DNA of 32,054 bases from an uncultured Candidatus Peribacteria bacterium (GTDB lineage: Bacteria; Patescibacteriota; Gracilibacteria; UBA4473), in contig CAZMOH010000001.1 in the NCBI GenBank assembly GCA_964567875.1, positions 1 through 32,054 of the forward strand, read 5' to 3'. Below are positions 4,702-30,444 of the stretch, piece after piece; the first letter of the stretch is position 1, and each line of letters begins with the position of its first letter. Below the pieces are notes generated by a model, which did no database searches, was not told the origin of the DNA, and saw only the letters and a program-made list of their open reading frames with translations. The position numbers were made by a program, and so were the translations under genes.

Positions 4702-4704
4702 AAA

Positions 4705-4929: not shown

Positions 4930-4941
4930 AAACTATAAAAA

Positions 4942-5726: not shown

Positions 5727-5840
5727 TTTTTAAAATGGTTAAAAATTATTACTCTAATGATAAGTCTGATTATAAATATTTTCAACTAGAAATTTTCTTT
5801 TAAATTGTTTTTTTATATTTTTTAAGTAATTTAGTAGCAT

Positions 5841-6242: not shown

Positions 6243-6258
6243 AATCCCGCGAAATTTT
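6241..6258 (+). repeat. Exact 18-mer motif copy (AAAATCCCGCGAAATTTT on the + strand)
   Basis: Overlaps the TAA stop (6240-6242) of the FdtA-like gene and lies 3' of tRNA-His. Confidence 0.95.
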
Positions 6259-6271: not shown

Positions 6272-6347
6272 TGGGGCGAACGGTGGGGATCGAACCCACG
6301 GCCAGCTGGACCACAACCAGCTGCTCTACCACTGAGCTACGTTCGCC
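6272..6347 (-). tRNA. tRNA-His (anticodon GTG)
   Basis: The reverse complement folds as a cloverleaf: G-1 + GCGAACG / TA / GCTC-AGTGGTA-GAGC / A / GCTGG-TTGTGGT-CCAGC / TGGCC / GTGGG-TTCGATC-CCCAC / CGTTCGC / C / CCA. The extra G-1 paired with C73 is the His identity element, and CCA is encoded. Confidence 0.9.
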
Positions 6348-6454: not shown

Positions 6455-7711
6455 ATGTTAAGTTTTTTTTTCAATTTTCTATTTCTAATAACACAAAAAA
6501 TAGAGCTCACTCAAAATCCTGTTTTGAATGAGGCAGAGTTCCATAACAGTGCCCCTTTAAGAAAAATTAAAATCCCGCGAAATTTTAAAAAAAAGATAAC
6601 TTTTTCTTCATCAAAACAAATCTGTCAGTCAAGATTTTTTACTAAATCTGATCAAAAAACATCACAAATAGATAACTTAGACTTTCCTTTAAATAAATAT
6701 TTTCGCCAAACTCTATCTACACCAACTCAAGTCAAAGGAATTTATTTAACTGGATATACTTTTTCTAATAAAAAGAAACGGACAGATTTAATAAATCTTA
6801 TAAAAAATACAGAATTAAACACGATTGTTATTGATTTTCAAGATTCAGATGGAGGGCTTATGTTTCCTGTTCAAGATCCAGAATTACAAAAAATTCCTCT
6901 TTCTACAGTTTATTTATCACGAAAGAAATTCCGCGAAATTTTAAATAAAATACACAAAGAGGGGATTTATACGATTGTTAGGATTACAACTTTTCAAGAT
7001 TCTGGAGCAGTAAAAGCTTTTCCTGATTTAGTTTTAAAAAACAAAAGAGGTGATGATTGGAAAAATTATAAGAATCTTTCTTGGTTAGATATGACAAATA
7101 AAAAATCTTGGGAAATTCCCGCGAAAAAAGCCTTAGAAGCAGTTAAAATGGGATTTGATGAAGTTCAATTTGATTATGTTCGTTTTCCCACAGATGGGAA
7201 TTTAAAATCAATTTCATATTATGAATTAGGAGATAAAAAGAAGTACGAGGTTTTAATAGATTTTTTCTCCTTTTTACAAAAACAAAAAAAGAAACTAGGG
7301 GTTCCTATTTCTGTAGATTTATTTGGTATAACTTACGCAAATTACAGTAATATTTCGCGGGATTTAATGATTGGTCAACGTTTAATTGATGCAGTTAAAT
7401 ATTTTGATTATGTATCTCCAATGCTTTATCCGTCACATTATGTTTCAGGTTATTTAGGCTATAAAAATCCCGCGAATTTTCCATATCAAGTTATTTCAAA
7501 AGCTTTATATGATGGACATAATATGATTAGGAGACACACAAAACAGCCCATTACTAAGACTAGACCATGGCTTCAATCTTTTAATTTAGGAGCAATTTAT
7601 GATTATGGGAAAATTCGTGCTGAAATTCGAGCAGTAGAAGAAAGCGGATCTTCTGGATGGATTTTGTGGAATGCTCGTAATGTCTACGGGATTGGGTTGA
7701 ATAAAAATTAA
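6455..7711 (+). CDS. Putative glycoside-hydrolase-like TIM-barrel protein (DUF4015-like), N-terminal signal/TM
   Basis: Contains VKGIYLTGYT...LNTIVIDFQDSDGG...IYTIVRITTFQD...GFDEVQFDYVRFPTDG. The start was moved to ATG 6455 (MLSFFFNFLFLI) because 6377-6454 overlaps the tRNA-His promoter. Confidence 0.7.
   Translation: MLSFFFNFLFLITQKIELTQNPVLNEAEFHNSAPLRKIKIPRNFKKKITFSSSKQICQSRFFTKSDQKTSQIDNLDFPLNKYFRQTLSTPTQVKGIYLTGYTFSNKKKRTDLINLIKNTELNTIVIDFQDSDGGLMFPVQDPELQKIPLSTVYLSRKKFREILNKIHKEGIYTIVRITTFQDSGAVKAFPDLVLKNKRGDDWKNYKNLSWLDMTNKKSWEIPAKKALEAVKMGFDEVQFDYVRFPTDGNLKSISYYELGDKKKYEVLIDFFSFLQKQKKKLGVPISVDLFGITYANYSNISRDLMIGQRLIDAVKYFDYVSPMLYPSHYVSGYLGYKNPANFPYQVISKALYDGHNMIRRHTKQPITKTRPWLQSFNLGAIYDYGKIRAEIRAVEESGSSGWILWNARNVYGIGLNKN
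6569..6586 (+). repeat. Exact 18-mer motif copy
   Basis: Inside the DUF4015-like CDS, where it encodes KIPRNF. Confidence 0.95.
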
Positions 7712-7727
7712 AATTTCGCGGGATTTT
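7710..7727 (-). repeat. Exact 18-mer motif copy
   Basis: Fused to the TAA stop at 7709-7711. Confidence 0.95.
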
Positions 7728-9281: not shown

Positions 9282-9305
9282 AAAATTCCCGCGAAATTTT
9301 AAAAA

Positions 9306-9737
9306 ATGAAACAAGATAAAATAGAGACTACTTTTCTGAAAACTTTTCGTGGATTTAAAAAAATAATTCCGATGATTTTGATTATTTTTCTAATAATCAG
9401 TTTTATCAAAGTTTTAATTCCTACCAGTTTTTATCAAAAAATTTTCACAGGTAATTTTTTCGCGGATTTATTTATCGGAAGTACTTTGGGGAGTGTTTTA
9501 GCTGGGAATCCAATTACTGGATATATTTTGGGAAACGAATTTTTAAAAAACGGAGTTGATTTAGTGGCAGTTACTTCTTTTTTGGTTTGTTGGACAACTG
9601 TTGGATTAATTCAGTATCCTGTAGAAAGCATTAGTTTGGGTAAAAATTTCGCGAAATTTCGTAATATTTCAGCTTTCTTTATTTCAATGCTAGTTGCTAT
9701 TACAACGGTTTTTATTTTTGATCTTATTATCAAATGA
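9306..9737 (+). CDS. Small polytopic membrane protein (possible permease subunit)
   Basis: 143 aa with about 4 hydrophobic helices. It is coupled to the next gene by an ATGA overlap. Confidence 0.5.
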   Translation: MKQDKIETTFLKTFRGFKKIIPMILIIFLIISFIKVLIPTSFYQKIFTGNFFADLFIGSTLGSVLAGNPITGYILGNEFLKNGVDLVAVTSFLVCWTTVGLIQYPVESISLGKNFAKFRNISAFFISMLVAITTVFIFDLIIK

Positions 9738-10243
9738 AAAAGATTTTTAAAAACAAAATCGCAATTATATTTTTCATTTGTTTTGTAATTTTGGCTGCAG
9801 TTTGGTGGCAAAATCCCGCGAAATTTTGGCAAATTGGACAAGTTTTCAAAAACTTAATTCTACAGTTAATTCCAGTTTTAGGATTAGTATTTTTAATAAT
9901 GTTTCTAATTAATTATTTTTTTGATAAAAATTTATTGGAAAAAAATTTATTAAAACAGAGTCCTTTAAAAAAATGGGTAGTTTCGATTCTCGCAGGAATT
10001 CTATCTGTTGGACCGGTTTATGTTTGGTATCCATTAATGCAGGATTTACAAGAAAAAAATGTTGAGAACCGTTATATTGCTTGTTTCCTTTATAATCGTG
10101 GCATAAAACTTCACTGGGTAACGATTCTGATTTTTTATTTTGGATTAATTTATGTTTTAATTTTGTTTATAGTGATGACTTTGTTTTCTATTCCACAGGG
10201 GATAATTACTGAGAAATTAATTAATAAATTTTCTTCAAAATGA
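9734..10243 (+). CDS. Small polytopic membrane protein (possible permease subunit)
   Basis: 169 aa and hydrophobic, with ATGA overlaps on both sides. Confidence 0.5.
   Translation: MKKIFKNKIAIIFFICFVILAAVWWQNPAKFWQIGQVFKNLILQLIPVLGLVFLIMFLINYFFDKNLLEKNLLKQSPLKKWVVSILAGILSVGPVYVWYPLMQDLQEKNVENRYIACFLYNRGIKLHWVTILIFYFGLIYVLILFIVMTLFSIPQGIITEKLINKFSSK
9810..9827 (+). repeat. Exact 18-mer motif copy
   Basis: Inside a membrane-protein CDS, where it encodes NPAKF. Confidence 0.95.
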
Positions 10244-11211
10244 ATATCTTTTATCCCTTCGAATATCTCGCGAAATTTATAACTTTTTCTATTTTTTCTC
10301 TTGAAAAAGGAACACATTTAGCGGAAGCTGTAAATTTTTTCTTTTACGATTCTCTGAAAATTTTGTTTTTAATTTTGATTATTACTCATTTAATGAGTTT
10401 GTTGCGGTATTATTTACCAATTGAAAAAATTCGTGGGTTTTTAACTAGTCGGAAATTTTACGGATTAGATTATTTTCTTGCCACAATTTTTGGGGCAATT
10501 ACGCCTTTTTGTTCTTGTTCTTCAATTCCACTTTTTATAGGATTCATCGAAGCCCGTATTCCATTGGGAGTTACTTTTGCTTTTTTGATAACTTCACCTC
10601 TAATTAATGAAGTAGCAATTGCTTTGTTTATTGGAATGTTTGGATTAAAAATCACCCTAGCCTATATTTTCGCGGGAATTTTTATTGGAATGCTGGGGGG
10701 ATTTATTATCGGACAATTAAATTTAGAAAAATATGTCGCCGATTTTGTCTGGAAAGCACATATTAAAAACCATGAAACAAAATCCCGCGAAATTTTGTTT
10801 GCTCAAGTTTGGCAAGAAATTTCCGCTGAAGCTTTTGGAATTATGCGAAAAATTACTGGTTATGTTTTAGTTGGAGTGGCTTTAGGTGGACTTATTCATG
10901 GTTTTGTTCCGCAGGGATTTTTTGAAAAATATCTACAAAAAGCTAGTTGGTGGGGAGTTCCCTTAGCCGTAATTTTAGCTATTCCTTTGTATTCTAACGC
11001 AAGTGGTGTAATTCCAATTATTCAATCACTAGTTACAAAAGGAGTTCCTTTGGGGACAGCTTTAGCTCTGATGATGGGGATTGTCGGACTTTCTTTGCCG
11101 GAAGCTTTTATTCTCAAAAAAGTTCTTAAATGGCAACTTCTTGCGATATTTTTCAGTATCGTAGCGGTTGGAATTATTCTAATTGGTTATATTTTTAATG
11201 CTTTTCTCTAA
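10240..11211 (+). CDS. Predicted permease (ArsP/YraQ-like, PF03773-type)
   Basis: 323 aa, polytopic, with the FCSCSSIPLF motif characteristic of this permease family. Confidence 0.7.
   Translation: MNIFYPFEYLAKFITFSIFSLEKGTHLAEAVNFFFYDSLKILFLILIITHLMSLLRYYLPIEKIRGFLTSRKFYGLDYFLATIFGAITPFCSCSSIPLFIGFIEARIPLGVTFAFLITSPLINEVAIALFIGMFGLKITLAYIFAGIFIGMLGGFIIGQLNLEKYVADFVWKAHIKNHETKSREILFAQVWQEISAEAFGIMRKITGYVLVGVALGGLIHGFVPQGFFEKYLQKASWWGVPLAVILAIPLYSNASGVIPIIQSLVTKGVPLGTALALMMGIVGLSLPEAFILKKVLKWQLLAIFFSIVAVGIILIGYIFNAFL
10779..10796 (+). repeat. Exact 18-mer motif copy
   Basis: Inside the permease CDS, where it encodes KSREI. Confidence 0.95.
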
Positions 11212-11227
11212 AATTTCGCGGGATTTT
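11210..11227 (-). repeat. Exact 18-mer motif copy
   Basis: Fills the 14-bp convergent spacer. It overlaps the permease TAA (11209-11211) and the mscS stop (11226-11228). Confidence 0.95.
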
Positions 11228-12047: not shown

Positions 12048-12162
12048 TTTATTTTTGTAAAATTTCGCGGGAATTATAAATGATTAATTATTAAAAGTGA
12101 AAATTTTAAAGCTAGAACAAATTCTTGTTGACTTTTTTAGTAAATTGCATTAACCATTAAAT

Positions 12163-12669
12163 ATGAGTGAGTTTAATGATAAAGTTTTCTCAAAAAATAC
12201 GCTAAAAATAAATTCAATTCTAGAAGAATCTAAAAATTTAAATGAAATTGTCTGGAGGTTTAGGCATCGAATTGATATGATTCTGATATCAATAGAAGAG
12301 CTTTTAATATTTTTTTTAAGTGAAAAAATATCTGATTTATTTATGAATGATGAACACTTATTAAAAAACACTGTTATTGCTACAACAATGATTTTTTCAG
12401 CAATGATTTTTTTTATTAAAGGTGAAAATTATAAATCTTTAAAATATAATTATTTGCATTTTGTGAGAAAAATAAGAGATAAAGATGATAAAGAAATTAT
12501 TGATAAATTAATAAAACAATTTAGAAAATCAGAAAAATTTGAAGGATATTGTGCAGAACAAGGAATTTATTTAGCAATTAGAGATATTTATGGAAAAAAT
12601 TCTCCAGAAATGAAAAAATTTAAAAAATTACGAAAGAAATATTCTAGAAATATAATTCCCAATTTCTAA
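12163..12669 (+). CDS. Hypothetical protein (very AT-rich, lacks the window-wide motif)
   Basis: 168-aa ORF, Lys/Ile/Asn-rich with one hydrophobic segment. No recognisable family. Confidence 0.45.
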   Translation: MSEFNDKVFSKNTLKINSILEESKNLNEIVWRFRHRIDMILISIEELLIFFLSEKISDLFMNDEHLLKNTVIATTMIFSAMIFFIKGENYKSLKYNYLHFVRKIRDKDDKEIIDKLIKQFRKSEKFEGYCAEQGIYLAIRDIYGKNSPEMKKFKKLRKKYSRNIIPNF

Positions 12670-12703
12670 AATTTCGCGGGATTTAATTCTTCATTAAAAA
12701 AAA

Positions 12704-12746: not shown

Positions 12747-12823
12747 GGGTGATTAGCTCAGTTGGCTAGAGCATCTCGTTTACACCGAGGAGGTCACAGG
12801 TTCGAGTCCTGTATCACCCACCA
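12747..12823 (+). tRNA. tRNA-Val (anticodon TAC)
   Basis: Cloverleaf: GGGTGAT/TA/GCTC-AGTTGGCTA-GAGC/A/TCTCG-TTTACAC-CGAGG/AGGTC/ACAGG-TTCGAGT-CCTGT/ATCACCC/A/CCA. Confidence 0.9.
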
Positions 12824-12837: not shown

Positions 12838-12861
12838 AGCAGGACGAGAGCCTGTTTTTTT
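12838..12861 (+). terminator. Weak hairpin plus T7 run after tRNA-Val
   Basis: agCAGG-acgagag-CCTGtt followed by TTTTTTT (12855-12861). Confidence 0.4.
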
Positions 12862-12924
12862 CTTATAAAAAAATCCCGCGAAAATTTGACTTTTCAAAAA
12901 AAATAAAGAAAATTCAAGCGTCTA

Positions 12925-12957
12925 GATGGTTAACTTGAGAAGTTAATCGTCTTTTTT
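12925..12957 (+). terminator. Terminator/attenuator-like hairpin in the nusA leader
   Basis: GATGGTTAACTT-gag-AAGTTAATCGTC forms a 12-bp stem with G-U pairs and a perfect 7-bp core. It is followed by TTTTTT (12952-12957). Confidence 0.5.
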
Positions 12958-12961
12958 CCGC

Positions 12962-12979
12962 AAAATTTCGCGGGATTTT
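12962..12979 (-). repeat. Exact 18-mer motif copy
   Basis: Ends 15 nt upstream of the nusA ATG. Confidence 0.95.
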
Positions 12980-14298: not shown

Positions 14299-14316
14299 AA
14301 AATTTCGCGGGATTTT
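14299..14316 (-). repeat. Exact 18-mer motif copy
   Basis: Lies 5 nt after the nusA stop. Confidence 0.95.
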
Positions 14317-14378: not shown

Positions 14379-14855
14379 ATGAAAATTTTAGGAATAGATC
14401 CCGGATATGGATTATGTGGATTTGCTGTTTTAGAGAAATCCCGCGAAATTTCGGAATTTAATCTGCTTACTTTTGGTGTTATTTCAACCCCCCCCGAAAA
14501 GAATTTTGCAGAAAGATTATTAGAGATTGCTAATGATTTTCAAAATCTTTTAAATAAATATAGGCCCCAAATTGTTTCAATTGAAGATTTATTTTTTGCC
14601 AAAAATGTAACAACTGGTTTACAGGTAGCACAAGTTCGCGGAATTTTAATTTATCTAGCCCAAAAATTCGGTTGTCAAATATTAGAACCAAAACCAGTAG
14701 AGGTAAAATCCTCTTTTACAGGAAACGGAAGAGCAACTAAATTAGAAATGAAGAAAATGGCGAAATTAATGTTTCACCTAGAAAATAATCCTCAAATTGA
14801 TGATGCAGCTGATGCAATTGCCATTGCTTTATGGGCAATTAGGCAGAAATATTAA
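14379..14855 (+). CDS. ruvC: Holliday junction resolvase RuvC
   Basis: Begins MKILGIDPGYGLCGFAVLE and contains ...DAADAIAIAL, carrying the catalytic acidic residues of RuvC. Confidence 0.93.
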   Translation: MKILGIDPGYGLCGFAVLEKSREISEFNLLTFGVISTPPEKNFAERLLEIANDFQNLLNKYRPQIVSIEDLFFAKNVTTGLQVAQVRGILIYLAQKFGCQILEPKPVEVKSSFTGNGRATKLEMKKMAKLMFHLENNPQIDDAADAIAIALWAIRQKY

Positions 14856-14870
14856 ATTTCGCAGGATTTT

Positions 14871-15938
14871 TTATTGAACTCCGTTTGCTTTCAAAATTGA
14901 CTTTAAATCCTCTTCGCTTTTAGCATACTCAAAAGCTACTTCTTTAGTTATAATTTTATTAATAACTAAGCCAGCTAAAGATTGTTCTAATTGCACCATT
15001 TGTCCTGAATCGTCAGTTTGAAGAGCTGTTGGAATCTGAAAAATCTTATTTGTTCGAATATAGTTGGCAATCGCATAGTTATTAACTAAAACTTCATAAG
15101 CCAAAGTCCGACCACCAGCAATTGTTGGCACCAAAGTTTGCGAAATAATGATTGATAGTGTGCTAGCAAGTTGTGAGCGAACTTGTCCCTGCTGTTCTGA
15201 AGGGAAAATATCAATAATTCGCGAAATTGTTTCCGGACCACTATTTGTATGTAAAGTTGAAAAAACCAAATGTCCAGTTTCAGCCATTGTTAAAGCCGCA
15301 GAGATTGTTTCATAATCACGCATTTCTCCAACTAACAAAATATCGGGATCTTCTCGTAAGGCAGCTTTAATCCCTGCTGTAAAATCTACAACATCTCGAC
15401 CAATTTCTCTCTGTTGAATCATAGAATTATTAGATGGGAGTAAAAATTCCACTGGATCTTCAATTGTGATAATATGATCCGCCCTTGTTCGTGAAATTTC
15501 TTGTAAAACTGAGGCTAAAGTTGTTGTTTTTCCCTGCCCAGTTGGCCCAACAATTAAAACAAATCCTTTGCGTTTTGTAGTTAGATTTTTAATAACAAAA
15601 TCAGGAAATCCTAAAGTATGAATATCAGGAATTTTCGCGGGAATTATTCGTAGAGAAACACTTAATCCTTTTTCTTGAAAAAAAGCATTTCCACGCATTC
15701 TTACGCCTTGTGGTCCTTGTACTGCAAAATCAACCTGTCTTCCAATTTGCAAAGTCTTTTTTTGTTTATCATTTAGAATAGGTAATAAAAACTGTTGAAT
15801 AAGTTTTGCATCAACAATTCTTTCTCCTTGTTTAACCATTTTCCCAGCGACACGAAAATGAATTTGTAATCCTGGTGATAAATGAATATCGGAAGCATTT
15901 TGCTGAATAGCGGCTAAAACTAGTTTTTCTGAATCCAT
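14871..15938 (-). CDS. pilT: Type IV pilus retraction ATPase PilT
   Basis: 355 aa with ASDIHL..., Walker A GPTGQGKTTT, and Asp/His boxes (DPDILLVGEMRD, GHLVFSTLHT). Confidence 0.9.
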   Translation of the reverse strand: MDSEKLVLAAIQQNASDIHLSPGLQIHFRVAGKMVKQGERIVDAKLIQQFLLPILNDKQKKTLQIGRQVDFAVQGPQGVRMRGNAFFQEKGLSVSLRIIPAKIPDIHTLGFPDFVIKNLTTKRKGFVLIVGPTGQGKTTTLASVLQEISRTRADHIITIEDPVEFLLPSNNSMIQQREIGRDVVDFTAGIKAALREDPDILLVGEMRDYETISAALTMAETGHLVFSTLHTNSGPETISRIIDIFPSEQQGQVRSQLASTLSIIISQTLVPTIAGGRTLAYEVLVNNYAIANYIRTNKIFQIPTALQTDDSGQMVQLEQSLAGLVINKIITKEVAFEYAKSEEDLKSILKANGVQ

Positions 15939-15985: not shown

Positions 15986-16003
15986 AAAATCCCGCGAAAT
16001 TTT
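15986..16003 (+). repeat. Exact 18-mer motif copy
   Basis: Overlaps the TAA stop (16002-16004, minus strand) of the M23-SLH gene and lies upstream of pilT. Confidence 0.95.
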
Positions 16004-18200
16004 AATGAATTTGTGATAATTTATAAAGAATTCTAGCGGCTTCAATGCGAGAAATTACTTTATTTGGGTGGACAAGTCCTTGTGCATCTGGGGAAATTAG
16101 CCCATTACTTCTAGCAAAAGAAAAGTATGGTTCATACCAGGAATCAGCTGTCACATCTCTATAAGGTGAGAATTTGGTATCTAAGGGAACAATCCCTTTA
16201 GCTAATAATGACATTTTTAAAAATTCAGCTTTAGTAATTCCGTTAGCTGGTTTAAAGTATTTTCCACTATAACCAGCAACTAATCCTTTGTCATAAGCAG
16301 TTGAAACATATTTTGCAAACCAATCCTGACGATTTACATCTTGAAATATTTTTTTCGCGGGATTTAATTTAATTTTATTAGCTGTTAAAATTGCTTTTAC
16401 AGCTTCCGCTCGATTTAGAAACTTGCTAGGTCGAAATTCTCCTTGTGCATTAGCCGTAATAATTTTGTTTTTATCAACAAATTCTGCGAAAATTCGCTCT
16501 TTCCCAATAGATGAAATATCTACAAATGATTTGGCTAGAAGCGTTGGAGATTTTATTTTTTTCTTAGCACTTTCCGCAACAATCTTAAATGGTTTTTTGG
16601 AGTTAGTTGTTAAGGTGATTTCTACGCCTTTATTTTTAAATAAAGATTTCTTGATAGTATTTGGCACAATTTTTACAAAATCTCGTGAAGTTGTGCGTAA
16701 AGTAACTCCCGAATCAGTCAATGCCGAATCTTTCGCAAATAAAATGATTTTTTTAGGTTTTCCAGGAACAAAAGTTCTATCTAGTTCAAACCAAAAATCA
16801 TCTGTTCCGTATTTTTGAAAATTTTCGCGGGATTTTTTACCGGGAACTATTTTCGGATTTGGTTTAGAAACGGATATATTTTTTGTTACAGTTGAAGCTG
16901 TTTTTGAAACTTTTTTAGCACTAGAATGTAAAGTAGTTGATTTATAATTTGGTCGACGAGAAGCAATTCTTATATGATTGTTTTGGAGTGGAATATTTTC
17001 CTTAAACCGAAATTTGCGACGCGAATTTTTTCGACGAACAATGCGACGAGCATGATTTACGGGATTATAAGATTTTTTTTGAGTAAAAGTTTTTTTTGAT
17101 GAATTAGAACTATGAGAAGCCCGCGAAATTTCTTGTTCAGATTGTCCGGCTGTTGCCACTAAACGCGGTTTTGTTGTTGGCACATAGCCAATTGTTCTAG
17201 CAATTAAATTCATAGGGTGAACAGTATATTTTTTCGCGAGATTTTGATTTAATCCGTGTTTTACTGCTTCAAAAAATGAAGATAATCCATGATTAACAAC
17301 TTCTTTCCAGGTAAATGGCCAATACGGATGAAAAGGAGCATTAGCTGTATCAATTTGAAAATGTAAATGAGGCGCAGTAGCCATTCCTGACATTCCAGAA
17401 AGACCAATAACTTGTCCTTTTTGAACTTGGTCTCCTTCTTTTACTTTAATTTGAGAAAGATGGGCATAAGCAGAATAAAGAGTTGTTTTTTTCGCGGGAT
17501 TTTTAGGATCAGGAACATCTTTGTGCATAACTACAATATGTTTCCCAAAACCAGTTGATTGGCTTTTAGCTTTAATAACAACTCCTCGGGAAATGGCATG
17601 AACTGGTGTTCCGATTGGAACTTTTATGTCTAGTCCAGTATGAGACCCAGTTCCTTCAGTTCCGTCTAATTTGTAATCTCCCAAAACAGGAACCGGATAA
17701 GTTAAATAAGCATTTCGTTCTCGTTCATTATTTGCTTGCCAAACTTTTCCTTTCTGGAAATCTACGACACTATATCTCGGTAAAGGAATAAATTTATTCG
17801 CTGGAATTTGAGAATAAGTTGCTTTTCTTTCCGCTGTTGTCAAAGCTGTCCATTTAGGAACTTTGGTAATCGGATAAACAGCTCCATCAAAAGGATCGGT
17901 ATTATATTTCATCTGAATCATTGAAGTTTGAAAAAACCGTAAATAATTCTGAATCCCTCCGTTAAAAATCAAAAAAGTTGCGATAATAATCAAAAGCAAA
18001 ATTGCTAGTGGATTTTCGCGAAAAAATCTTTCCCGCGAAAAATAATCACGAGGACTTATTTGTTTTTTCACAAAATTTACAGCCTCTGAACTCAATAGTT
18101 CATTTTGATATTTTGATTTATGAAAATATTTGTCGTAGAAATAAGCCAGTGATACGGCCGAGACAATTCCTGAAACGATAGCGATAATTTTTTTCTTCAT
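16002..18200 (-). CDS. Membrane-anchored M23 (LytM) peptidase with three C-terminal SLH domains
   Basis: An N-terminal TM segment is followed by HTGLDI ... PHLHFQI (M23 zinc motifs) and a basic low-complexity linker. Three SLH-like repeats follow (FVDISS..., FQDVNRQDWFAKYVSTAYDKGLVAGY..., YRDVTADSWYEPYFSFARSNGLIS...). Confidence 0.85.
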   Translation of the reverse strand: MKKKIIAIVSGIVSAVSLAYFYDKYFHKSKYQNELLSSEAVNFVKKQISPRDYFSRERFFRENPLAILLLIIIATFLIFNGGIQNYLRFFQTSMIQMKYNTDPFDGAVYPITKVPKWTALTTAERKATYSQIPANKFIPLPRYSVVDFQKGKVWQANNERERNAYLTYPVPVLGDYKLDGTEGTGSHTGLDIKVPIGTPVHAISRGVVIKAKSQSTGFGKHIVVMHKDVPDPKNPAKKTTLYSAYAHLSQIKVKEGDQVQKGQVIGLSGMSGMATAPHLHFQIDTANAPFHPYWPFTWKEVVNHGLSSFFEAVKHGLNQNLAKKYTVHPMNLIARTIGYVPTTKPRLVATAGQSEQEISRASHSSNSSKKTFTQKKSYNPVNHARRIVRRKNSRRKFRFKENIPLQNNHIRIASRRPNYKSTTLHSSAKKVSKTASTVTKNISVSKPNPKIVPGKKSRENFQKYGTDDFWFELDRTFVPGKPKKIILFAKDSALTDSGVTLRTTSRDFVKIVPNTIKKSLFKNKGVEITLTTNSKKPFKIVAESAKKKIKSPTLLAKSFVDISSIGKERIFAEFVDKNKIITANAQGEFRPSKFLNRAEAVKAILTANKIKLNPAKKIFQDVNRQDWFAKYVSTAYDKGLVAGYSGKYFKPANGITKAEFLKMSLLAKGIVPLDTKFSPYRDVTADSWYEPYFSFARSNGLISPDAQGLVHPNKVISRIEAARILYKLSQIH

Positions 18201-18253: not shown

Positions 18254-18271
18254 AAAATCCCGCGAAATTTT
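18254..18271 (+). repeat. Exact 18-mer motif copy
   Basis: Lies in the divergent spacer between the M23-SLH gene and trmB. Confidence 0.95.
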
Positions 18272-18311: not shown

Positions 18312-18914
18312 ATGACACCTCGTCGAGTCCGTAAACATGTGAATCCTTTGTCCATTCTGAAAAAACATAATTTCGCGGGATTTGGAAACGATAAATCAAT
18401 TATTGTTGATGTTGGAGCTTGTTTAGGAGAATTTGCCAAAGAAATGATTGAAAAATTTCCCGCGAAAAATTTCATTCTCTTTGAAATTCGTGTTCCACTG
18501 GCCAATAAGCTTCGAGAAAAATTTAAAAATTTTAAAAATGTTGTAATTTTTGATGGTGATGCGGGGCTAAATTTTCGCAGGATTTTAGAACCATGTTTAA
18601 AGAAAGGAGCCAAAATTGAGGAAATCTTTGTAAATTTTCCTGATCCGTGGTTCAAAGAAAGACATAAGAAAAGACGGTTTATAAACGAAAAATTTTTAAA
18701 AAGTTGTGAAAGTTGGTTACCAGCGGAAACAAAATTTATATTTCAGACTGATCAGGAATTTTTATTTCGCGAAACTTTGGAAGTGGTTGAAAATTCCCCG
18801 TTTTCTAAAATAGAATTTTTTGAAAACTCTGCTCACGGGATTCCAACTCACTGGGAAAAACAAAAACTATTAGAAGGAGATAAAATTTGGCGGATGAAAT
18901 TTTGGAAAAAATAA
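18312..18914 (+). CDS. trmB: tRNA (guanine46-N7)-methyltransferase TrmB
   Basis: Contains VDVGACLGEF, LFEIR and FPDPWFKERHKKRR. The ATG at 18312 is preferred over the tracked TTG at 18294. Confidence 0.9.
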   Translation: MTPRRVRKHVNPLSILKKHNFAGFGNDKSIIVDVGACLGEFAKEMIEKFPAKNFILFEIRVPLANKLREKFKNFKNVVIFDGDAGLNFRRILEPCLKKGAKIEEIFVNFPDPWFKERHKKRRFINEKFLKSCESWLPAETKFIFQTDQEFLFRETLEVVENSPFSKIEFFENSAHGIPTHWEKQKLLEGDKIWRMKFWKK

Positions 18915-18930
18915 AATTTCGCGGGATTTT
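18913..18930 (-). repeat. Exact 18-mer motif copy
   Basis: Fused to the trmB TAA stop (18912-18914). Confidence 0.95.
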
Positions 18931-18994
18931 ACAATAGTTTTTATTTTCTATCATCTCAAAAGTTATCTTAAAAAAAAACCGCGAAATTTCTCCT

Positions 18995-19046: not shown

Positions 19047-21614
19047 ATGAGTACCCCCATTCAGCGACAATATTTGGAATTAAAAAAGAAAGTTCCAGAA
19101 GCAATTTTATTTTTCCGATTGGGAGATTTTTACGAGATGTTTTTTGAGGATGCTAAATTAGCTTCACGACTTTTGGGAATTACTTTAACCGCTCGCCACA
19201 AAGGCACAGAAAACGAAATGCCTATGTGTGGTGTACCGTATCACTCAGCAGACAAGTATCTAGAAAAACTAATTGAAAATGGTTATAAAGTCGCTATTGC
19301 CGAACAAGTTCCACTAGCAGATGGTAAATTTTCGCGGGAAATTTCCCGTGTCGTAACTCCCGGAGCCAGTGTCGAAAAAAACCTAAATCCCGATGAGAAT
19401 TCATATCTAGTCGCCATAGATTTTGACTCAAAAAAAGAAAACTACGGTTTATCCGTAGCTGACTTATCAACAGGTGATTTTCGGACAGCCAGTTTCGGCA
19501 ACCTTTTTGATTTTCTAGATGAAATTTGGAAACTAAATCCTCGCGAAATTCTAATTCCCACCGAGATTTTTGATAACGAAAAATTTTGTGAAAAACTTCC
19601 TAATGTTCTCAAAACTCCGCGGAAATTCCCGCGAAAAAATTCAGACAAAATTCTAAAAAACCATTTTGGAGTTAGTGATTTACAAGTTTTTGGGATTGAA
19701 AAACTAGAAATTTTAATCCGAGTTTCAGCGGAAATTTTAAATTATCTACAAGAAACACAACGCAGTAAGCTCCCTCATTTTCAAAAACTAGTAAAATATT
19801 CTACCCGCGAAATAATGCCGTTAGATACGCAGACAATGCGACATTTGGAAATTTTTGAGCCAATTTTTGCGGGCGAAAAACACTCAACTTTGTGGTCGGT
19901 TTTTGAAAAATCAAGAACAGCTATGGGAAGCCGTCTTTTACGAAGCTGGCTAGCGAACCCGCTTTTGGACCGCGATAAAATTTTATCCCGCCTGCAAGCA
20001 GTGGAGGAATTAGTAGAAAACACAAAATTTCGCGGGATTTTGGACGAAACCTTAAAAAAAGTCTGTGATTTACAACGAGTAATTGCTCGTTTAGCTATTA
20101 ATCGCGGTAACGCTCGTGATTTAGTTTTTCTTCGCAATACTCTGGAAGTTTTTCCTGTTTTAACAGAAATTTGTCAGTCAGCAAATTCCGCGAAATTTTC
20201 TGAAAAAGCTCAGATTTTTCCCCAATTTTCCGATATTTTTACCAAACTTACCTCTGCTCTAAATGATGATCCACCTTTGGAAATTACTGCGGGCGGAATT
20301 TTTCGTGACGGATATTCCGCGAAATTAGACGAATTACGAAATTTGCAAAAAAATGCTAAAAACTGGCTAGAGGATTTTCTTGAAAAAAAGAAAAAAGAAT
20401 CTGGAATTGAAAAAGTGCGGATTAAGTTTTCCAAAACTTTTGGTTTCTGTCTGGAAGTTTCCAAAGCGGCTGCGCAAAACGTGCCAGCTACTTGGCAACG
20501 CCGACAAACTCTAGTTAATGCCGAAAGATTTACCACGCCCGAATTAGCCGAATACGAAACCAAAGTTCTTTCCGCTGAAAGTGAAGCTTATGACTTGGAA
20601 CACAAAATGTTTCAGGATTTGCGGGCAGAAGTGATGAATTTCGCTGGGAAATTACAAGTGGCTTCGGAAGCAATTGCCGAAATTGATACTATTTTAACTT
20701 TAACCAAAACCGCTTTGCGGTGGCGCTGGACTAAACCTGAAATCTTAAAAAATTCGCGGGATTTACAAATTAAAAACGGACGACATCCTGTGGTAGAAAA
20801 AATTTCTACGGAAAGATTTATTGCTAATGATTTATATTTAAGTGAAAAATCCCGCGAATTTTTTTGGCTGATAACTGGGCCAAATATGTCAGGAAAATCC
20901 ACTTTTCTTCGTCAAAACGCTCTCATTATTTTGCTCGCGCAAATGGGAAGCTTTGTTCCGGCAGAAAAATGTGAAATGGGAATTGTTGACCGAATTTTTA
21001 CCCGAGTGGGAGCGAGTGACAATTTGGCAGCGGGGAAGTCCACTTTTTTTGTAGAAATGGCGGAAATGTCCCATATTTTAAATTCGGCGACTGCCAAAAG
21101 TTTTATTATTTTAGACGAAATTGGTCGCGGAACTTCCACTTTTGACGGAATATCTTTAGCTTGGGCGATTACGGAATTCTTACACGATAAAATTGGCGCA
21201 AAAACAATTTTTGCGACCCATTATCACGAACTGATTGATTGTGTTGAAAATCTAGATTTCGCGGGGAATTACCATGTTTCCGTAGCACAAAACGAAGAGG
21301 AAATCATCTTCCTCCGCCGAATAAAAAAAGGTGGTATTTCTGACTCCTTTGGAATAGAAGTGGCGGCCTCGGTTGGATTTCCCAAGGAAGTCATTGCAAA
21401 ATCCCGCGAAATTTTGGAAAAACTGGAAACAGAAAGTTTAGACAAAAACATTCAACCAAATCTCTTTTCTGCTCCAAGAATCCGTGAGAAAATCGTGGAG
21501 ATGAAGTTAGAATCAGAAGTAGAAAAACTTTTAGCAGAAATCAATCCGGACGATTTATCACCACGCGAAGCGCTGGAAAAAGTTTATGAGTTGAAGAAAA
21601 AACTTAAAAAATAA
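19047..21614 (+). CDS. mutS: DNA mismatch repair protein MutS
   Basis: 855 aa, beginning TPIQRQYLELKKK...FFRLGDFYEMFFEDA, with Walker A ITGPNMSGKSTFLRQ and the THYHEL motif. Confidence 0.97.
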   Translation: MSTPIQRQYLELKKKVPEAILFFRLGDFYEMFFEDAKLASRLLGITLTARHKGTENEMPMCGVPYHSADKYLEKLIENGYKVAIAEQVPLADGKFSREISRVVTPGASVEKNLNPDENSYLVAIDFDSKKENYGLSVADLSTGDFRTASFGNLFDFLDEIWKLNPREILIPTEIFDNEKFCEKLPNVLKTPRKFPRKNSDKILKNHFGVSDLQVFGIEKLEILIRVSAEILNYLQETQRSKLPHFQKLVKYSTREIMPLDTQTMRHLEIFEPIFAGEKHSTLWSVFEKSRTAMGSRLLRSWLANPLLDRDKILSRLQAVEELVENTKFRGILDETLKKVCDLQRVIARLAINRGNARDLVFLRNTLEVFPVLTEICQSANSAKFSEKAQIFPQFSDIFTKLTSALNDDPPLEITAGGIFRDGYSAKLDELRNLQKNAKNWLEDFLEKKKKESGIEKVRIKFSKTFGFCLEVSKAAAQNVPATWQRRQTLVNAERFTTPELAEYETKVLSAESEAYDLEHKMFQDLRAEVMNFAGKLQVASEAIAEIDTILTLTKTALRWRWTKPEILKNSRDLQIKNGRHPVVEKISTERFIANDLYLSEKSREFFWLITGPNMSGKSTFLRQNALIILLAQMGSFVPAEKCEMGIVDRIFTRVGASDNLAAGKSTFFVEMAEMSHILNSATAKSFIILDEIGRGTSTFDGISLAWAITEFLHDKIGAKTIFATHYHELIDCVENLDFAGNYHVSVAQNEEEIIFLRRIKKGGISDSFGIEVAASVGFPKEVIAKSREILEKLETESLDKNIQPNLFSAPRIREKIVEMKLESEVEKLLAEINPDDLSPREALEKVYELKKKLKK
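20024..20041 (-). repeat. Exact 18-mer motif copy
   Basis: Inside mutS, where it encodes KFRGIL. Confidence 0.95.
21398..21415 (+). repeat. Exact 18-mer motif copy
   Basis: Inside mutS, where it encodes KSREIL. Confidence 0.95.
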
Positions 21615-21631
21615 AAATTTCGCGGGATTTT
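21614..21631 (-). repeat. Exact 18-mer motif copy
   Basis: Fused to the mutS TAA stop (21612-21614). Confidence 0.95.
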
Positions 21632-21752: not shown

Positions 21753-21929
21753 ATGATCGAAGAGTTTATAATATACTGTCCAGATTGTCGCGGAAAGTTT
21801 GAAGTTCCAGCAGAAGATTTTGCAGAAGAAGAAATTTTGGAATGTGATTTGTGTGGTGCGGAAATTATGGTTGTGGAAGTTGACCCAATTAAATTAAAGC
21901 TATTAGAACCAGGAGAGGATTTTTTATAA
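21753..21929 (+). CDS. LysW-like zinc-ribbon small protein (58 aa, below the ORF-track cutoff)
   Basis: My own translation is MIEEFIIYCPDCRGKFEVPAEDFAEEEILECDLCGAEIMVVEVDPIKLKLLEPGEDFL*. It has CxxC...CxxC and an acidic C-terminus, resembling LysW/ArgW carrier proteins. It lies under the spurious antisense ORF 21647..21988. Confidence 0.6.
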   Translation: MIEEFIIYCPDCRGKFEVPAEDFAEEEILECDLCGAEIMVVEVDPIKLKLLEPGEDFL

Positions 21930-23482: not shown

Positions 23483-23535
23483 CGTGCAAATCTTAAATGT
23501 TTGATTACGAATAACAAGAAAATCCCGCGATTTTT

Positions 23536-24003
23536 TTATCTCAGAGCATACAGCGCCACACCGGCCGCGATAGAAACATTAAGTGAAGTTTTTTGTCCGT
23601 ACATAGGAATTTCTAAATGTGTTTCGCATTTATCTAAAACATTTTCTGAAACTCCAGTTACTTCATTGCCTAAAATTAAAGCAATTTTTTCAACTGTTGA
23701 AAAATCTTCCGCAAAAATTTCGCGGGATTTTGGACTTTGTTCTAAAGCTATGATTTGAAATCCTTCTTCTTTTAAGTTTTCAATTAGTTCTGCAATATTT
23801 TCTATTTTTTCCCATTCAATAAAATCTTCCGCTCCAAGTGAAACTTTTTCAATTCTCCTATCAGGTGGACAACCTGTGTATCCGCATAAATAAACTTTTT
23901 GCCAACCAGCTCCGTCAGCTGTCCTAAAAATCGACCCAACATTATGCAAAGATCGCAAGTTTTCTAAAATAACCACGCGTTTTTTTTTCGCGGAATTTTT
24001 CAT
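23536..24003 (-). CDS. SpoU/TrmH-family RNA 2'-O-methyltransferase
   Basis: 155 aa with LRSLHNVGSIFRTADGAG, LILGNEVTGVS and EIPMYGQKTSLNVSIAAGVALY (SPOUT knot motifs). Confidence 0.85.
   Translation of the reverse strand: MKNSAKKKRVVILENLRSLHNVGSIFRTADGAGWQKVYLCGYTGCPPDRRIEKVSLGAEDFIEWEKIENIAELIENLKEEGFQIIALEQSPKSREIFAEDFSTVEKIALILGNEVTGVSENVLDKCETHLEIPMYGQKTSLNVSIAAGVALYALR
23714..23731 (-). repeat. Exact 18-mer motif copy
   Basis: Inside the SpoU/TrmH CDS. Confidence 0.95.
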
Positions 24004-24013: not shown

Positions 24014-24415
24014 CTAAGCTGCTTCTTTTTTCTCGGTTTCAAAAGTTGCAGCTTTTTTTAACTTAGCCGCTTCTTCTTGTTCCGCTAACTCTTTCTTTTG
24101 TTTCGGAGTAAGTTTAATTTTTCTCACACGACCTTTTTCTTCATTAGTTGTGTGTTTAGCATTTTGACCAGCTAATTTAGCTTTTTCGGCTACTTTTTGA
24201 TGTTCCATCTTAAAACCAGCTTTTTCCGCGAGTTTTTTTAATGTTTTAATTGCTTTGGCTGATAAACGCATTCTTTCTACTCGTCCTGTTTCAGGGTTCC
24301 ACATTTTTTTCCAAAATAAATTCGGACGAAATGTTCGTTTAGTTGCCTTCAAAGAAAAGGGACGATTTTGTCCACTAGTTGTTTTTTTGCCGGTTTTTTG
24401 ACAGACTCGAGCCAT
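24014..24415 (-). CDS. rpmB: 50S ribosomal protein L28 with a long Lys/Glu/Ala-rich C-terminal extension
   Basis: MARVCQKTGKKTTSGQNRPFSLKATKRTFRPNL...RMRLSAKAIKTLKK is the L28 core. About 65 extra charged residues follow. Confidence 0.85.
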   Translation of the reverse strand: MARVCQKTGKKTTSGQNRPFSLKATKRTFRPNLFWKKMWNPETGRVERMRLSAKAIKTLKKLAEKAGFKMEHQKVAEKAKLAGQNAKHTTNEEKGRVRKIKLTPKQKKELAEQEEAAKLKKAATFETEKKEAA

Positions 24416-24498: not shown

Positions 24499-24516
24499 AA
24501 AATTTCGCGGGATTTT
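24499..24516 (-). repeat. Exact 18-mer motif copy
   Basis: Lies between the divergent rpmB and pth promoters. Confidence 0.95.
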
Positions 24517-25104: not shown

Positions 25105-25651
25105 AAATTTTCGTGGGATTTTAGGGACATGGGTCTATTCTAATGAAACAAATCCCGTTTTTCCATTGGGAAAAGTTGTTGATATTGTAATTGACCCTTT
25201 AATAGCAAAGGGAGTTGCTTTATGGATAAAAACAATTGATGGATTAAGGTTGGTTGATATTCGTGATATTCAAACCTGGAGAAAAAATATTTATATTCCG
25301 AGTCAAAAGGAAATTCTAAAACCAACAGAATTCCCGCGAATTTTACCAATATTAGAAAGAGAAGTGCCAATTATTGGGGCGGATGTTTTTGTTCAGGAAA
25401 TTAAAAATTTTCGAAAAATTGGAAAAGTTATTAACTTTGCTTTTATAAAAACAGAGATTTTAATTACGGATATAGAAGTAAATACTGGTTGGTGGATTTT
25501 TGGAAAAAAAATAAAAATAACACGCAAAAGAATTTTAAAAATAGATAAAACTGGAATTTTTGTTACTAATAATTTAATTCAAGACACAAAAGTAGTTAGT
25601 AAAAAAACAGAAGATGGAATAACTTTTTCATCGACTCCTAGTCCAAATTAA
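25094..25651 (+). CDS. Hypothetical protein (possibly PRC-barrel-like N-terminal region)
   Basis: 185-aa ORF overlapping the pth end by 11 nt. The LGKVVDIVIDP...GVALWI pattern only loosely suggests a PRC barrel. Confidence 0.45.
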   Translation: MAIENFRGILGTWVYSNETNPVFPLGKVVDIVIDPLIAKGVALWIKTIDGLRLVDIRDIQTWRKNIYIPSQKEILKPTEFPRILPILEREVPIIGADVFVQEIKNFRKIGKVINFAFIKTEILITDIEVNTGWWIFGKKIKITRKRILKIDKTGIFVTNNLIQDTKVVSKKTEDGITFSSTPSPN

Positions 25652-25667
25652 AATTTCGCGGGATTTT
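25650..25667 (-). repeat. Exact 18-mer motif copy
   Basis: Fills the convergent spacer, fused to the TAA at 25649-25651 and touching the GGCT-like stop. Confidence 0.95.
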
Positions 25668-26002: not shown

Positions 26003-26060
26003 CTTTTAAAAAGTTCAGGATAAGTATATCAAAAAAAACTAAAAACAAAATCCCGCGAAG

Positions 26061-27113
26061 TTATCTTAATTTTTTTGCTAGCCGATAAATTTTATACCAA
26101 AATCTATCAAAAACGATTTCTACTCCGGGGCGATAAGTTTTACGATACCCACCAAATTTCCACTTAAATTCGGAAATTCCAGAATAAGCATGATTTGGTT
26201 CATTTTCTGGAGCAATTCCCAGAAAGTCATAAGTTCGACAGCCCCGTTTTTTCGCGAAATTTATCATAAACCATTGCAAACCATACGGCGCCATTAAATT
26301 TCGATATTCACGATTAGAAGTTGATGCGCCAAAATAATAAATTGCTTTATCCCCACAAAAAGTAGAAATCGCTGTGGCAATTCTCTCGCCCTCAAATTCC
26401 GCGAAAAAAAGTACTGCATATTTATTCAAATTTTTTACAAAAGACTTGTAATAACTTTTTTGATGTCCACTAAATCCATCACGACTTGTTGTTTCGGTTG
26501 ATAAATTATAAAAATCATCTAAATCTTGATCGGTTATTTTTTCTGGTAAAATTTCGCGGAATTTTACGCCTTTTTTAGTTGATAATTTTATATTATATCG
26601 GCCTTTACGCTTCATTTCAGCTAAAAGTTCTTCATTGTTTTTCGTTAGATCTAGCTCCAAAGTATCAGTTGGTTGATAATTTTGAGTTGCTTTTTGTACA
26701 GAAAATCCCGCGAAAATATCCGGATCTTGTTTTTCCAAATAAGGATCAAGTCGCCAAAACAATCCTTTTTCACGATTTTCTAAAATTTCGCGGGATTTTT
26801 TTAACAAAAACTTAACAGCTTCTTCTTGTTTATCAGCAAAAACTGGGCCACGGGCTGAGTACCACCAAAATTTATTTAAAAATCCAGTTTGCATTTTAAC
26901 AGCCAAAATAGTTGCCAAAATTTCCCGCGAATTTTTATCGCGCACACCAAATCCCAAAACGGGCCCGCGTCCCGGAATTTGTTCTTGTAATTTTTTGAAA
27001 TCAGAAATCTGGTGAATTGAGCCACGTTTATTATTTATCACAAAGCTATCCCAATTTTCTTTTTCTGTTTCAGAAAACTCAAAGAATTCAAAATTTCGCG
27101 GGATTTTAAGCAT
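26061..27113 (-). CDS. FemAB-family peptidoglycan aminoacyltransferase (FemX-like)
   Basis: 350 aa with WDSFV...HQISDF, MKRKGRYNIKLSTKKGVKF, YYFGASTSNREYRNLMAPYGLQW and YDFLGI...EFKWKFGG. Confidence 0.85.
   Translation of the reverse strand: MLKIPRNFEFFEFSETEKENWDSFVINNKRGSIHQISDFKKLQEQIPGRGPVLGFGVRDKNSREILATILAVKMQTGFLNKFWWYSARGPVFADKQEEAVKFLLKKSREILENREKGLFWRLDPYLEKQDPDIFAGFSVQKATQNYQPTDTLELDLTKNNEELLAEMKRKGRYNIKLSTKKGVKFREILPEKITDQDLDDFYNLSTETTSRDGFSGHQKSYYKSFVKNLNKYAVLFFAEFEGERIATAISTFCGDKAIYYFGASTSNREYRNLMAPYGLQWFMINFAKKRGCRTYDFLGIAPENEPNHAYSGISEFKWKFGGYRKTYRPGVEIVFDRFWYKIYRLAKKLR
26782..26799 (-). repeat. Exact 18-mer motif copy
   Basis: Inside the FemAB-family CDS. Confidence 0.95.
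27090..27107 (-). repeat. Exact 18-mer motif copy
   Basis: Forms codons 3-8 of the FemAB-family gene (MLKIPRNF...). Confidence 0.95.
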
Positions 27114-28631: not shown

Positions 28632-28698
28632 CGTCTCGATTTTGCTAAAAAACAATAATTTGTCAATTTTTTGCAAATTTCGCGGGATTTTTTTGTTT

Positions 28699-29261: not shown

Positions 29262-29283
29262 AACCGGCGCGACCGGTTTTTTT
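29262..29283 (+). terminator. Rho-independent terminator after the TrpR-like gene
   Basis: AACCGG-cgcga-CCGGTT followed by a T-run through 29283. Confidence 0.6.
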
Positions 29284-29351: not shown

Positions 29352-29369
29352 TAAAATCCCGCGAAATTT
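29352..29369 (+). repeat. Exact 18-mer motif copy
   Basis: Lies in the spacer upstream of the AstE/AspA-family gene. Confidence 0.95.
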
Positions 29370-29408
29370 TGCGGTGAATCTTAATTTATTTCTTAAAACT
29401 TTTTAAAA

Positions 29409-30374: not shown

Positions 30375-30444
30375 AAAAATTCCGCGAAATTTTGCTAATC
30401 TTGTAAACAAATTTATAATTCCCGCGAAAATTTAATTTTTAAAA

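Follow-up and report, generated by a model that had tools for sequence, protein, structure and literature searches.

The window examined here is a stretch of 32,054 nucleotides (contig CAZMOH010000001.1, positions 1 to 32,054), and the element of interest is an 18-nt word, AAAATTTCGCGGGATTTT, that occurs in it about once per 450 bases, in genes and spacers alike. The gene map, drawn from Pfam and NCBIfam profiles, comprises in its first part ychF, a GT4 glycosyltransferase gene, a ribosomal protein block running from rplP to rpsH, hpf, fdtA, a DUF4015 gene, purH, genes for ArsP permeases, and mscS. The middle part contains nusA, ruvC, pilT, an M23-SLH peptidase gene, trmB, mutS, a gene for a LysW-like Zn-ribbon protein, and pyrE. 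EamA, SpoU, L28, pth, GGACT, FemAB, FecR-like, YerC/TrpR-like, AstE-like, and aspS genes make up the last part. Genes for tRNA-His(GTG) (6272-6346, minus strand) and tRNA-Val(TAC) (12747-12823, plus strand) are also present. GC content is ~33%. The nearest MutS proteins assigned to a named organism, at 55-59% identity, are those of Candidatus Gracilibacteria, Candidatus Peregrinibacteria, and an unclassified dolphin-mouth bacterium, and the open reading frames (ORFs) stay unbroken when read with the standard code, in which TGA is a stop codon. Thus, the DNA belongs to a standard-code Candidate Phyla Radiation (CPR, or Patescibacteria) bacterium.

An initial annotation had drawn attention to the end of mutS, where a perfect copy of the word (21614-21631, plus strand) overlaps the last base of the TAA stop codon (21612-21614). 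The site reads TAAAAATTTCGCGGGATTTT, the stop being continued as TAA-A-AATTTCGCGGGATTTT with one extra A. From this and other gene ends, it was proposed that the motif may mark transcript or gene boundaries. The fusion of copies with stop codons is real, but the motif is not boundary-specific: it is a clade-specific word, read on double-stranded DNA and kept at very high density genome-wide, rather than a stop-codon motif. Other short words are known for their abundance in bacterial genomes. In Neisseriaceae, the DNA uptake sequence (DUS) has the core GCCGTCTGAA; in Pasteurellaceae, the uptake signal sequence (USS) has the core AAGTGCGGT; and cyanobacteria carry the highly iterated palindrome HIP1, GCGATCGC. 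DUS and USS are tags of "self" DNA, as in Neisseria and Haemophilus. The receptor for DUS/USS is the minor pilin ComP, with ComN as a predicted one.

Over all aligned copies, the consensus is AAAA(T/a)TTCGCGGGA(T/a)TTT, that is, 18 nt. Beyond these positions the flanks are random, around the copies of the window as well as around 398 pooled copies. The 9-mer core TTCGCGGGA is found 71 times without mismatch, for 0.22 occurrences expected. When up to three mismatches are allowed, the 16-mer has 106 matches (2.0 expected) and the 18-mer 74 copies for ~40 genes, and the latter cover ~4% of the DNA. Spacers hold 28 of these 74 copies in 2,452 nt (11.4/kb), and genes the other 46 (62%) in ~29.6 kb (1.55/kb). 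Once the word is masked, the over-represented remainder consists only of degenerate remnants of the same word. In 70 control loci of other bacteria, the top 9-mer is an A/T-only word that does not exceed ~1/kb. Two forms of the core dominate among one-off variants, TTCGCGGAA with 18 copies and TTCGCGAGA with nine. The commonest degenerate form, AATTTCGCGGAATTTT (core TTCGCGGAA), is near-palindromic and matches both strands; it is located at positions 230, 6927, 9645, 20184, 26550, 30378, and 31568. Finally, the exact cores are shared evenly between the strands (36 on the plus strand, 35 on the minus strand), and the cumulative GC skew of the window mostly rises. In this respect the word differs from Chi and from the FtsK-orienting polar sequences (KOPS), which are also over-represented oligomers read on DNA but are strongly biased to one strand in each replichore.

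Copies of the word are frequently fused to stop codons. This is the case for 14 of the 26 intergenic copies, whereas 5.3 +/- 1.2 are expected if copies are placed uniformly inside the actual spacers (a 2.7-fold excess), and 0 of 20,000 simulations reached 14. In motif-free outgroups, stop-adjacent DNA is only 0.9 mismatch (of 18) nearer to the word than other spacer DNA. Hence, neither short spacers nor A-rich ends account for the fusion, of which composition explains little. The fallback offered there, that the word is simply tolerated best at A/T-rich ends, is close to our own conclusion; however, composition alone is insufficient and the word is actively maintained genome-wide.

Stop-fused copies are found at many gene ends. 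On the plus strand, the TAA codons at 7709, 11209, 12667, 18912, and 25649 run directly into AATTTCGCGGG..., as first annotated. The corresponding copies are located at 7710-7727 (DUF4015 gene, perfect), 11210-11227 (ArsP gene, perfect), 12668-12685 (hyp168, one mismatch), 18913-18930 (trmB, perfect), and 25650-25667 (hyp185, perfect). On the minus strand, a perfect copy (15986-16003) is fused to the M23-SLH stop (16002-16004), and a copy with one mismatch (14-31), reading AAATTTTCGCGGGATTTT from 31 to 14, abuts the TAA (34-32) of a folD remnant. Copies in the opposite orientation to the gene are found at the end of fdtA (6241-6258, minus strand, perfect, fused to the stop and 13 nt downstream of the minus-strand tRNA-His gene), at the rpsH stop, which is overlapped by the copy (5322-5339, minus strand, two mismatches), and at the purH stop (9283-9300, minus strand, one mismatch, abutting), where the copy in sister contig L128 agrees in both place and orientation. 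Minus-strand copies with two mismatches are also fused to the stops of the SpoU gene (23519-23536) and of the FemAB gene (26047-26064), and a near-palindromic variant (30376-30393, minus strand) abuts the AstE-like stop. Next to nusA, a perfect plus-strand copy (14299-14316) begins 5 nt past the stop; its orthologue in sister contig L206 is reverse-complemented.

Spacers between genes are occupied almost without exception. Convergent genes share a single copy that fills the spacer, as had been noted: between ychF and the GT4 gene (1383-1400, plus strand, one mismatch), where the T-end overlaps the GT4 stop; between ArsP and mscS (11210-11227), where the copy is fused to both stops and L128 is alike; between ruvC and pilT (14853-14870, plus strand, a degenerate copy with two mismatches); and between hyp185 and the GGACT gene (25650-25667, plus strand). 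Divergent spacers, which hold no 3' end, contain a copy in five of six cases: GT4/rplP (2425-2442, plus strand, perfect), mscS/hyp168 (12059-12076, plus strand, two mismatches), M23-SLH/trmB (18254-18271, minus strand, perfect), L28/pth (24499-24516, plus strand, perfect), and the spacer next to the FecR-like ORF, whose 5' edge the copy occupies (28674-28691, plus strand, one mismatch). Other spacer copies are the near-palindromic variant AAAATTTCGCGGAATTTT between the folD remnant and ychF (228-245, plus strand), a copy with one mismatch between tRNA-Val and nusA (12870-12887, minus strand), a perfect copy upstream of nusA (12962-12979, plus strand), degenerate copies with three mismatches between trmB and mutS (18973-18990, minus strand) and just upstream of aspS (30416-30433, minus strand), and a perfect copy between the TrpR-like and AstE-like genes (29353-29370, minus strand), 120 nt past the stop and beyond a hairpin terminator (29262-29278). 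On the protein-gene map, each spacer of at least 14 bp has a copy with up to four mismatches, except 5727-5840, an exception also named in the initial annotation; with the tRNAs and the small Zn-ribbon gene added to the map, two further spacers of 25-30 bp have none.

The placement of copies may also have left a trace in the stops themselves, and we suggest that the word may have influenced stop codon choice. TAA represents 27 of 34 stops (79%) in the window, vs. 17 of 36 (47%) in the motif-free outgroups L084 and L086, and the mutS stop is TGA in both of these outgroups and TAA, with the motif, in the motif clade. A copy directly after the mutS stop is also found in L081, L082, and L241, and not in L084 and L086.

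Do these copies act at the level of RNA? They might be factor-dependent terminators or signals for 3'-end formation or processing, translation masking the copies inside genes so that only the one past the stop acts. This reading, close to that of the initial annotation, is conceivable in view of such masking, but we consider it unlikely. In its favor are the stop fusion, the copies kept in sister species after the stops of mutS, purH, and ArsP, and the scarcity of classical hairpin terminators, the clear ones being that at 29262-29278 and two hairpins after tRNA-Val (12838-12856 and 12924-12952). The latter had been assigned to the nusA leader and look like terminators of tRNA-Val; the second is kept in L206. 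Like intrinsic (Rho-independent) terminators, the word often lies just past a stop, with a T-run at its 3' side, and known uptake sequences double as terminators (bioRxiv 10.1101/2025.10.24.684340). Moreover, 18 of the 398 pooled copies (12 intergenic, six genic) have CGC at positions -8 to -6, and the full CCGC present in 12 of them yields a GC stem followed by a T-tail. Upstream of nusA, for example, the motif at 12962-12979 pairs through its GCGG with a preceding CCGC to form a small hairpin with a T-tail (12956-12975). These few copies might act as terminators.

Several observations argue against such a role for the word as a whole. Its RNA has no stable GC stem, the folding energy of 0 to -1 kcal/mol being no better than that of shuffled sequences. 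The rule that the sense strand of the gene reads TAA-AATTTCG does not hold generally. Indeed, when copies fused to a single stop were pooled from the window, from 79 metagenome contigs rich in the motif, and from relatives' contigs (~215 kb in all), 29 had the same orientation as the gene and 23 the opposite one (P = 0.49), 47 of the 52 stops being TAA. The absence of preference and the flipped copy after nusA in L206 do not suit an RNA-level signal. In addition, five of six divergent spacers carry a copy, ~21 cores lie in the same sense inside genes, and termination leaves unexplained why the word is driven into coding sequences at the cost of altered amino acids. Thus, of the proposed boundary signal, the excess at stops stands, but it concerns a minority of copies, most of the others being genic, in both orientations and in all six reading frames.

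Copies inside genes are informative on how the word arises and is kept. Genic cores fall into all six frame and orientation classes and encode varied peptides, such as KSREIL, NPAK, SRD/E, FAGI, RGI, and IPRN. Perfect genic copies are found, for instance, in the DUF4015 gene (6569-6586, minus strand), hyp169 (9810-9827, minus strand), the ArsP permease gene (10779-10796, minus strand), the SpoU methylase gene (23714-23731, plus strand), and the FemAB gene (26782-26799 and, near the 5' end, 27090-27107, both plus strand). In mutS, we aligned the codons of the window with those of a strain that is nearly identical, of sister species at 85% and 83% identity, and of outgroups at 64% and 62%. Copies stand at aligned positions with no neighboring indel, save one in an indel-variable loop. 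The substitutions that give rise to them are synonymous or conservative, and some gains are confined to single lineages, in both directions. The perfect copy at 21398-21415 (minus strand) encodes K-S-R-E-I-L, where the outgroups keep K-A/S-R/H-E-I-L with other codons (three and six mismatches); here the protein was already K-[SA]-R-E-I-L and the motif clade picks the codons that spell the word. At 20024-20041 (plus strand), a perfect copy encodes K-F-R-G-I-L, the sisters have a copy with one mismatch at the same codons, and the outgroups are unrelated, with no indel. In such a variable region the protein itself is altered, NTKFRGILD vs. NTEIAEKLR. A third copy (20748-20765, plus strand) is specific to the lineage of the window and also came about by substitutions, not by insertion.

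The conservation of these sites differs from that of ordinary coding positions. In the motif columns of mutS, the third codon position is more conserved than elsewhere in the gene (0.72 vs. 0.54), whereas positions 1 and 2 are less so (0.75 and 0.81 vs. 0.86 and 0.94). In five gene pairs, nine of 12 genic cores are identical in the sister species, vs. 15% of other 9-mers (P = 6e-6), and when the spacers that follow mutS, purH, and ArsP/mscS are compared with their orthologues, nothing but the copy is conserved as a block. Between strains, one of 85 differences falls inside a copy, where ~3.4 are expected, a comparison of low power. Constrained genes are poor in copies: the ribosomal protein genes have one core in ~3.1 kb, ychF has none, and nusA and pilT have few, whereas many other genes reach 2-3.8 cores/kb, mutS having six cores. 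Finally, spacer copies are nearer to the consensus than genic ones. The origin of copies by substitution, their retention, the codon-position pattern, and their scarcity in constrained genes together show that the force acts on the DNA sequence itself, the copies settling where the cost is least.

These data bear on two further explanations. A miniature mobile repeat of the repetitive extragenic palindromic (REP) or miniature inverted-repeat transposable element (MITE) type, inserting at gene ends, would produce many identical copies and an enrichment in spacers. Such elements are, however, longer, with conserved ends, and essentially confined to spacers, whereas only 18 nt are conserved here, neither a flanking repeat nor a target duplication accompanies them, and nearly two-thirds of copies are in frame inside genes. 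The orthologous alignments, which show substitutions and not insertions, already contradict this explanation, and we give it almost no credence. Alternatively, the word could be a by-product of biased repair or methylation, for example of a methyltransferase acting on a CGCG or CCCGCG core combined with repair of the very-short-patch type, and have no role in uptake or binding. The CpG-rich core, the predominance of two forms among one-off variants, and the association of HIP1 with orphan methyltransferases (PMC4390886) agree with it. Yet repair of this type acts on sites of 4-6 bp and would not keep 18 positions including the A/T flanks, the window contains neither a methyltransferase gene for the core nor a Vsr-like gene, and the retention of whole copies between species exceeds what a mutational bias predicts, as argued for HIP1 (PMC5861425). 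We regard a by-product of this kind as very improbable.

The word is restricted to a narrow group of organisms. Relatives with 75-99% MutS identity have about 2-4 cores/kb. A search of metagenomes with the exact 18-mer returned at least 120 loci, and among the matches listed, 79 contigs are motif-rich, with 337 cores in 182 kb (~1.85/kb) and GC contents ranging from 0.27 to 0.45; hence, several species carry the word. In six relatives at 56-64% MutS identity (~130 kb in total), there is no copy and no other hyper-abundant word. Candidate "dialects" in these outgroups were rejected: CGCGGGA in L084 (16 copies) is not enriched against a second-order Markov background, and the top words of L086 derive from a tandem repeat within one gene. 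L245-L248 contain neither a dialect nor an abundant word. Among viral contigs, 34 loci have the 16-mer, with one or two cores each, as expected by chance; none is enriched, which is neutral for the interpretation proposed below.

One occurrence appears to fall outside this group. L193 (13960-14769) and L136 (5700-6271), from different samples, represent a bacterium that does not look CPR-like, with a FadL-like outer-membrane protein, HMG-CoA reductase, and type III pantothenate kinase. The first 13.9 kb of L193 have no copy, and its last 800 bp have five copies beside a PD-(D/E)XK transposase gene, among them a perfect inverted pair AAATTCCCGCGAAATT-AA-AATTTCGCGGGAATTT, interspersed with 26-bp palindromes TAGAGACGCGATTTATCGCGTCTCTA. 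An exchange of DNA with the motif clade could explain this end, which might otherwise be a mobile element that bears the word or a locus related to a host.

A word read on DNA may be bound inside the cell or recognized at its surface. In the first case, the copies would form an array of binding sites for an abundant, clade-specific DNA-binding protein, organizing the nucleoid in a HIP1-like manner and perhaps insulating transcription units by roadblocks that work in either orientation. We see this as the less probable of the two, though well worth considering. The sequence AAAAT..CGCG..ATTTT makes the word quasi-palindromic and separates its A/T tracts by roughly one turn of the helix, and its orientation is irrelevant at stops (29 vs. 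23). Nearly every spacer has exactly one copy, and a single copy fills the convergent ones. Perfect copies are spaced somewhat more evenly than at random (coefficient of variation 0.63 vs. 0.94, P = 0.02), a weak effect. There is more than one copy per gene, kept at orthologous positions, and the same argument has been made for selection on HIP1 (PMC5861425). Against this, the core TTCGCGGGA is clearly asymmetric and thus ill suited to a symmetric dimer, the evenness is confined to perfect copies, degenerate ones being randomly spaced, and the 46 genic copies would be roadblocks within essential genes, for example mutS. Moreover, no candidate protein was identified, and the bias to permissive sites and the stronger degeneracy of genic copies suggest that copies are tolerated rather than locally required. 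As regards HIP1 itself, the likeness lies in hyper-abundance, each gene having on average one copy or more and coding and non-coding DNA both being occupied, in retention at orthologous positions, and in the lack of a peptide or RNA role. HIP1 is, however, a perfect 8-bp palindrome, recognized by orphan methyltransferases and phylum-wide, whereas the present word has 18 bp, an asymmetric core, a narrow clade, and a strong enrichment in spacers and at stop codons. The function of HIP1 was long unknown, and a recent preprint ties it to transformation efficiency (bioRxiv 10.1101/2024.09.10.611283).

In the second case, which we tentatively prefer and hold to be nearly an even matter, the word would serve for uptake or self-recognition in the manner of USS/DUS and would accumulate at permissive sites. 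A surface receptor, probably part of a type IV pilus and com machinery, would prefer DNA that bears the word; fragments from the same species would then be taken up and recombined more often, and point mutations creating or improving a copy would be over-transmitted. The word would thereby build up where it is least harmful, that is, in a compact genome, in poorly conserved stretches of proteins and in the few bases between a stop and the next promoter. Its AAAA start and TTTT end would let it overlap a TAA stop on either strand. Since these ends share bases with TAA and the bases past a stop are the freest, stop-fused copies and convergent spacers filled by a single copy would be by-products of such uptake.

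Several lines of evidence are consistent with an uptake word. The window encodes the type IV pilus retraction ATPase PilT (14871-15938, minus strand; TIGR01420, 399 bits for a cutoff of 319), and pilin-like ORFs are found on related contigs. The window encodes no other part of a possible DNA-uptake apparatus, and the tie of PilT to the word is circumstantial. The pilin-like ORFs of the motif-rich contigs are on L111, L155, and L178. In a sister species, L241 (4341-5144) encodes a further protein, of 267 aa, with a prepilin N-methylation motif and a Laminin_G_3 domain; its gene comes after mutS, the Zn-ribbon gene, and pyrE and precedes recR. Being pilin-like, the protein is a candidate DNA receptor. 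Conservation of type IV pili and com genes is reported throughout CPR, and in Saccharibacteria natural transformation proceeds through ComEC (PMC10633639). The uptake sequences known so far are words of 9-10 nt, with hundreds to thousands of copies occupying up to ~2% of a genome; they occur inside genes as well as in spacers, accumulate where the sequence is permissive, lie at terminators in about half of cases, and are read by a minor pilin (bioRxiv 10.1101/2025.10.24.684340). Mutation and uptake bias have been argued to suffice for their build-up (PMC1939737).

The resemblance to DUS/USS extends to many traits: shortness, a GC-rich core set between A/T-rich bases, a density of at least ~1 copy/kb, equal strands, presence in genes and spacers, a preference for permissive sites and gene 3' ends, restriction to close relatives, an excess of one-off variants, and an organism with type IV pilus parts in a phylum with com genes. 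The sequence itself is unrelated, all 18 nt are specified, and the host is a CPR bacterium and not a proteobacterium. Other points weigh against uptake. To our knowledge, sequence-specific uptake is known from two proteobacterial families only. The density, 2.2 cores/kb and ~4% of the DNA, is two to three times the known maximum (~2%). Copies are single and stop-fused, with one pair in opposite orientation within 60 nt in the whole window, unlike the inverted pairs, typical of known intergenic uptake sequences, that form terminator hairpins, and the six outgroups sampled have no related dialect. The uptake machinery seen in sequence amounts to pilT and three pilin-like ORFs, comEC and dprA lying outside the window and the contig coverage. 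Near-saturation, with one copy in almost every spacer of at least 14 bp, might point to a local function, and direct selection for some other function at the DNA level would account just as well for the conservation at orthologous positions, as argued for HIP1 (PMC5861425).

Some other features of the window deserve mention. The folD remnant (32-166, minus strand) has ~42 C-terminal codons open (...VPGGVGPMTVVSLIENPIEAAEK*) with stops upstream; at the edge of the window, it represents a pseudogene or a fragment of a gene. The ribosomal block rplP-rpmC-rpsQ-rplN-rplX-rplE-rpsN-rpsH (2383-5414) is isolated: on its 5' side, the divergent GT4 gene and a strong promoter-like TTGACA-16-TAGAAT (2504-2531) stand in place of rpsC, and on its 3' side, convergent hpf stands in place of rplF. 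An independent contig, L243 (11 mismatches), has precisely position 1 of the window as its start and 5405, in the rpsH/hpf spacer, as its end; the 5405/5406 join could be an assembly or scaffolding junction. The window is continuous at 12500/12501 and 24610/24611, where ORFs cross both ends of L242. In the ArsP region (9306-11211, plus strand), a full-length ArsP permease is preceded by a short ArsP-like fragment (143 aa), which corresponds to the family's N-terminal half, and by a hypothetical protein of 169 aa, stops and starts overlapping; this may be a split or duplicated permease. The L28 protein (24014-24415, minus strand) has 133 aa, the family domain spanning only residues 3-61, with a C-terminal extension of ~70 residues. 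Downstream of mutS, the LysW-like Zn-ribbon gene (21753-21929, plus strand) encodes 58 aa; it is also downstream of mutS in L241 and in the seven relatives L084-L086 and L245-L248, which have 56-64% MutS identity (directly adjacent in five of the seven), which looks like a conserved small-gene partnership. The phosphoribosyltransferase encoded after mutS was considered as ComF and rejected, the NCBIfam profile identifying orotate phosphoribosyltransferase, PyrE.

Taken as a whole, the word is of the same kind as DUS/USS or HIP1, hyper-abundant in the genome, and differs from these in sequence, length, density, placement, and host lineage. Full-text searches of the literature yielded no uptake sequence reported for CPR, and the word itself only in unrelated primers. 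It could represent the first independently evolved DNA-uptake signal outside Neisseriaceae and Pasteurellaceae, an 18-bp mark of "self" for a type IV pilus and com system that takes up ~4% of the genome, a proposal that we put forward as possible but rather doubtful. On this view, the saturating, stop-fused placement may mean that the word is also a gene-boundary element working in either orientation. If the word is indeed such a tag, sequence-specific transformation would have evolved beyond the two proteobacterial families that define the phenomenon, within CPR, where natural competence was shown only recently and in Saccharibacteria alone (PMC10633639). A cell that is likely host-dependent could then tell the DNA of its own species from surrounding host DNA, and placing the word on donor DNA would be a direct way to attempt transformation of this uncultured clade. 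The word is also a sharp marker with which to bin the clade's contigs and to recognize DNA that has passed between the clade and other organisms. Even without a role in uptake, an asymmetric word of HIP1 scale that overlaps stops and fills nearly all spacers of a streamlined genome bears on how drive or selection at the DNA level shapes protein sequences and gene ends.

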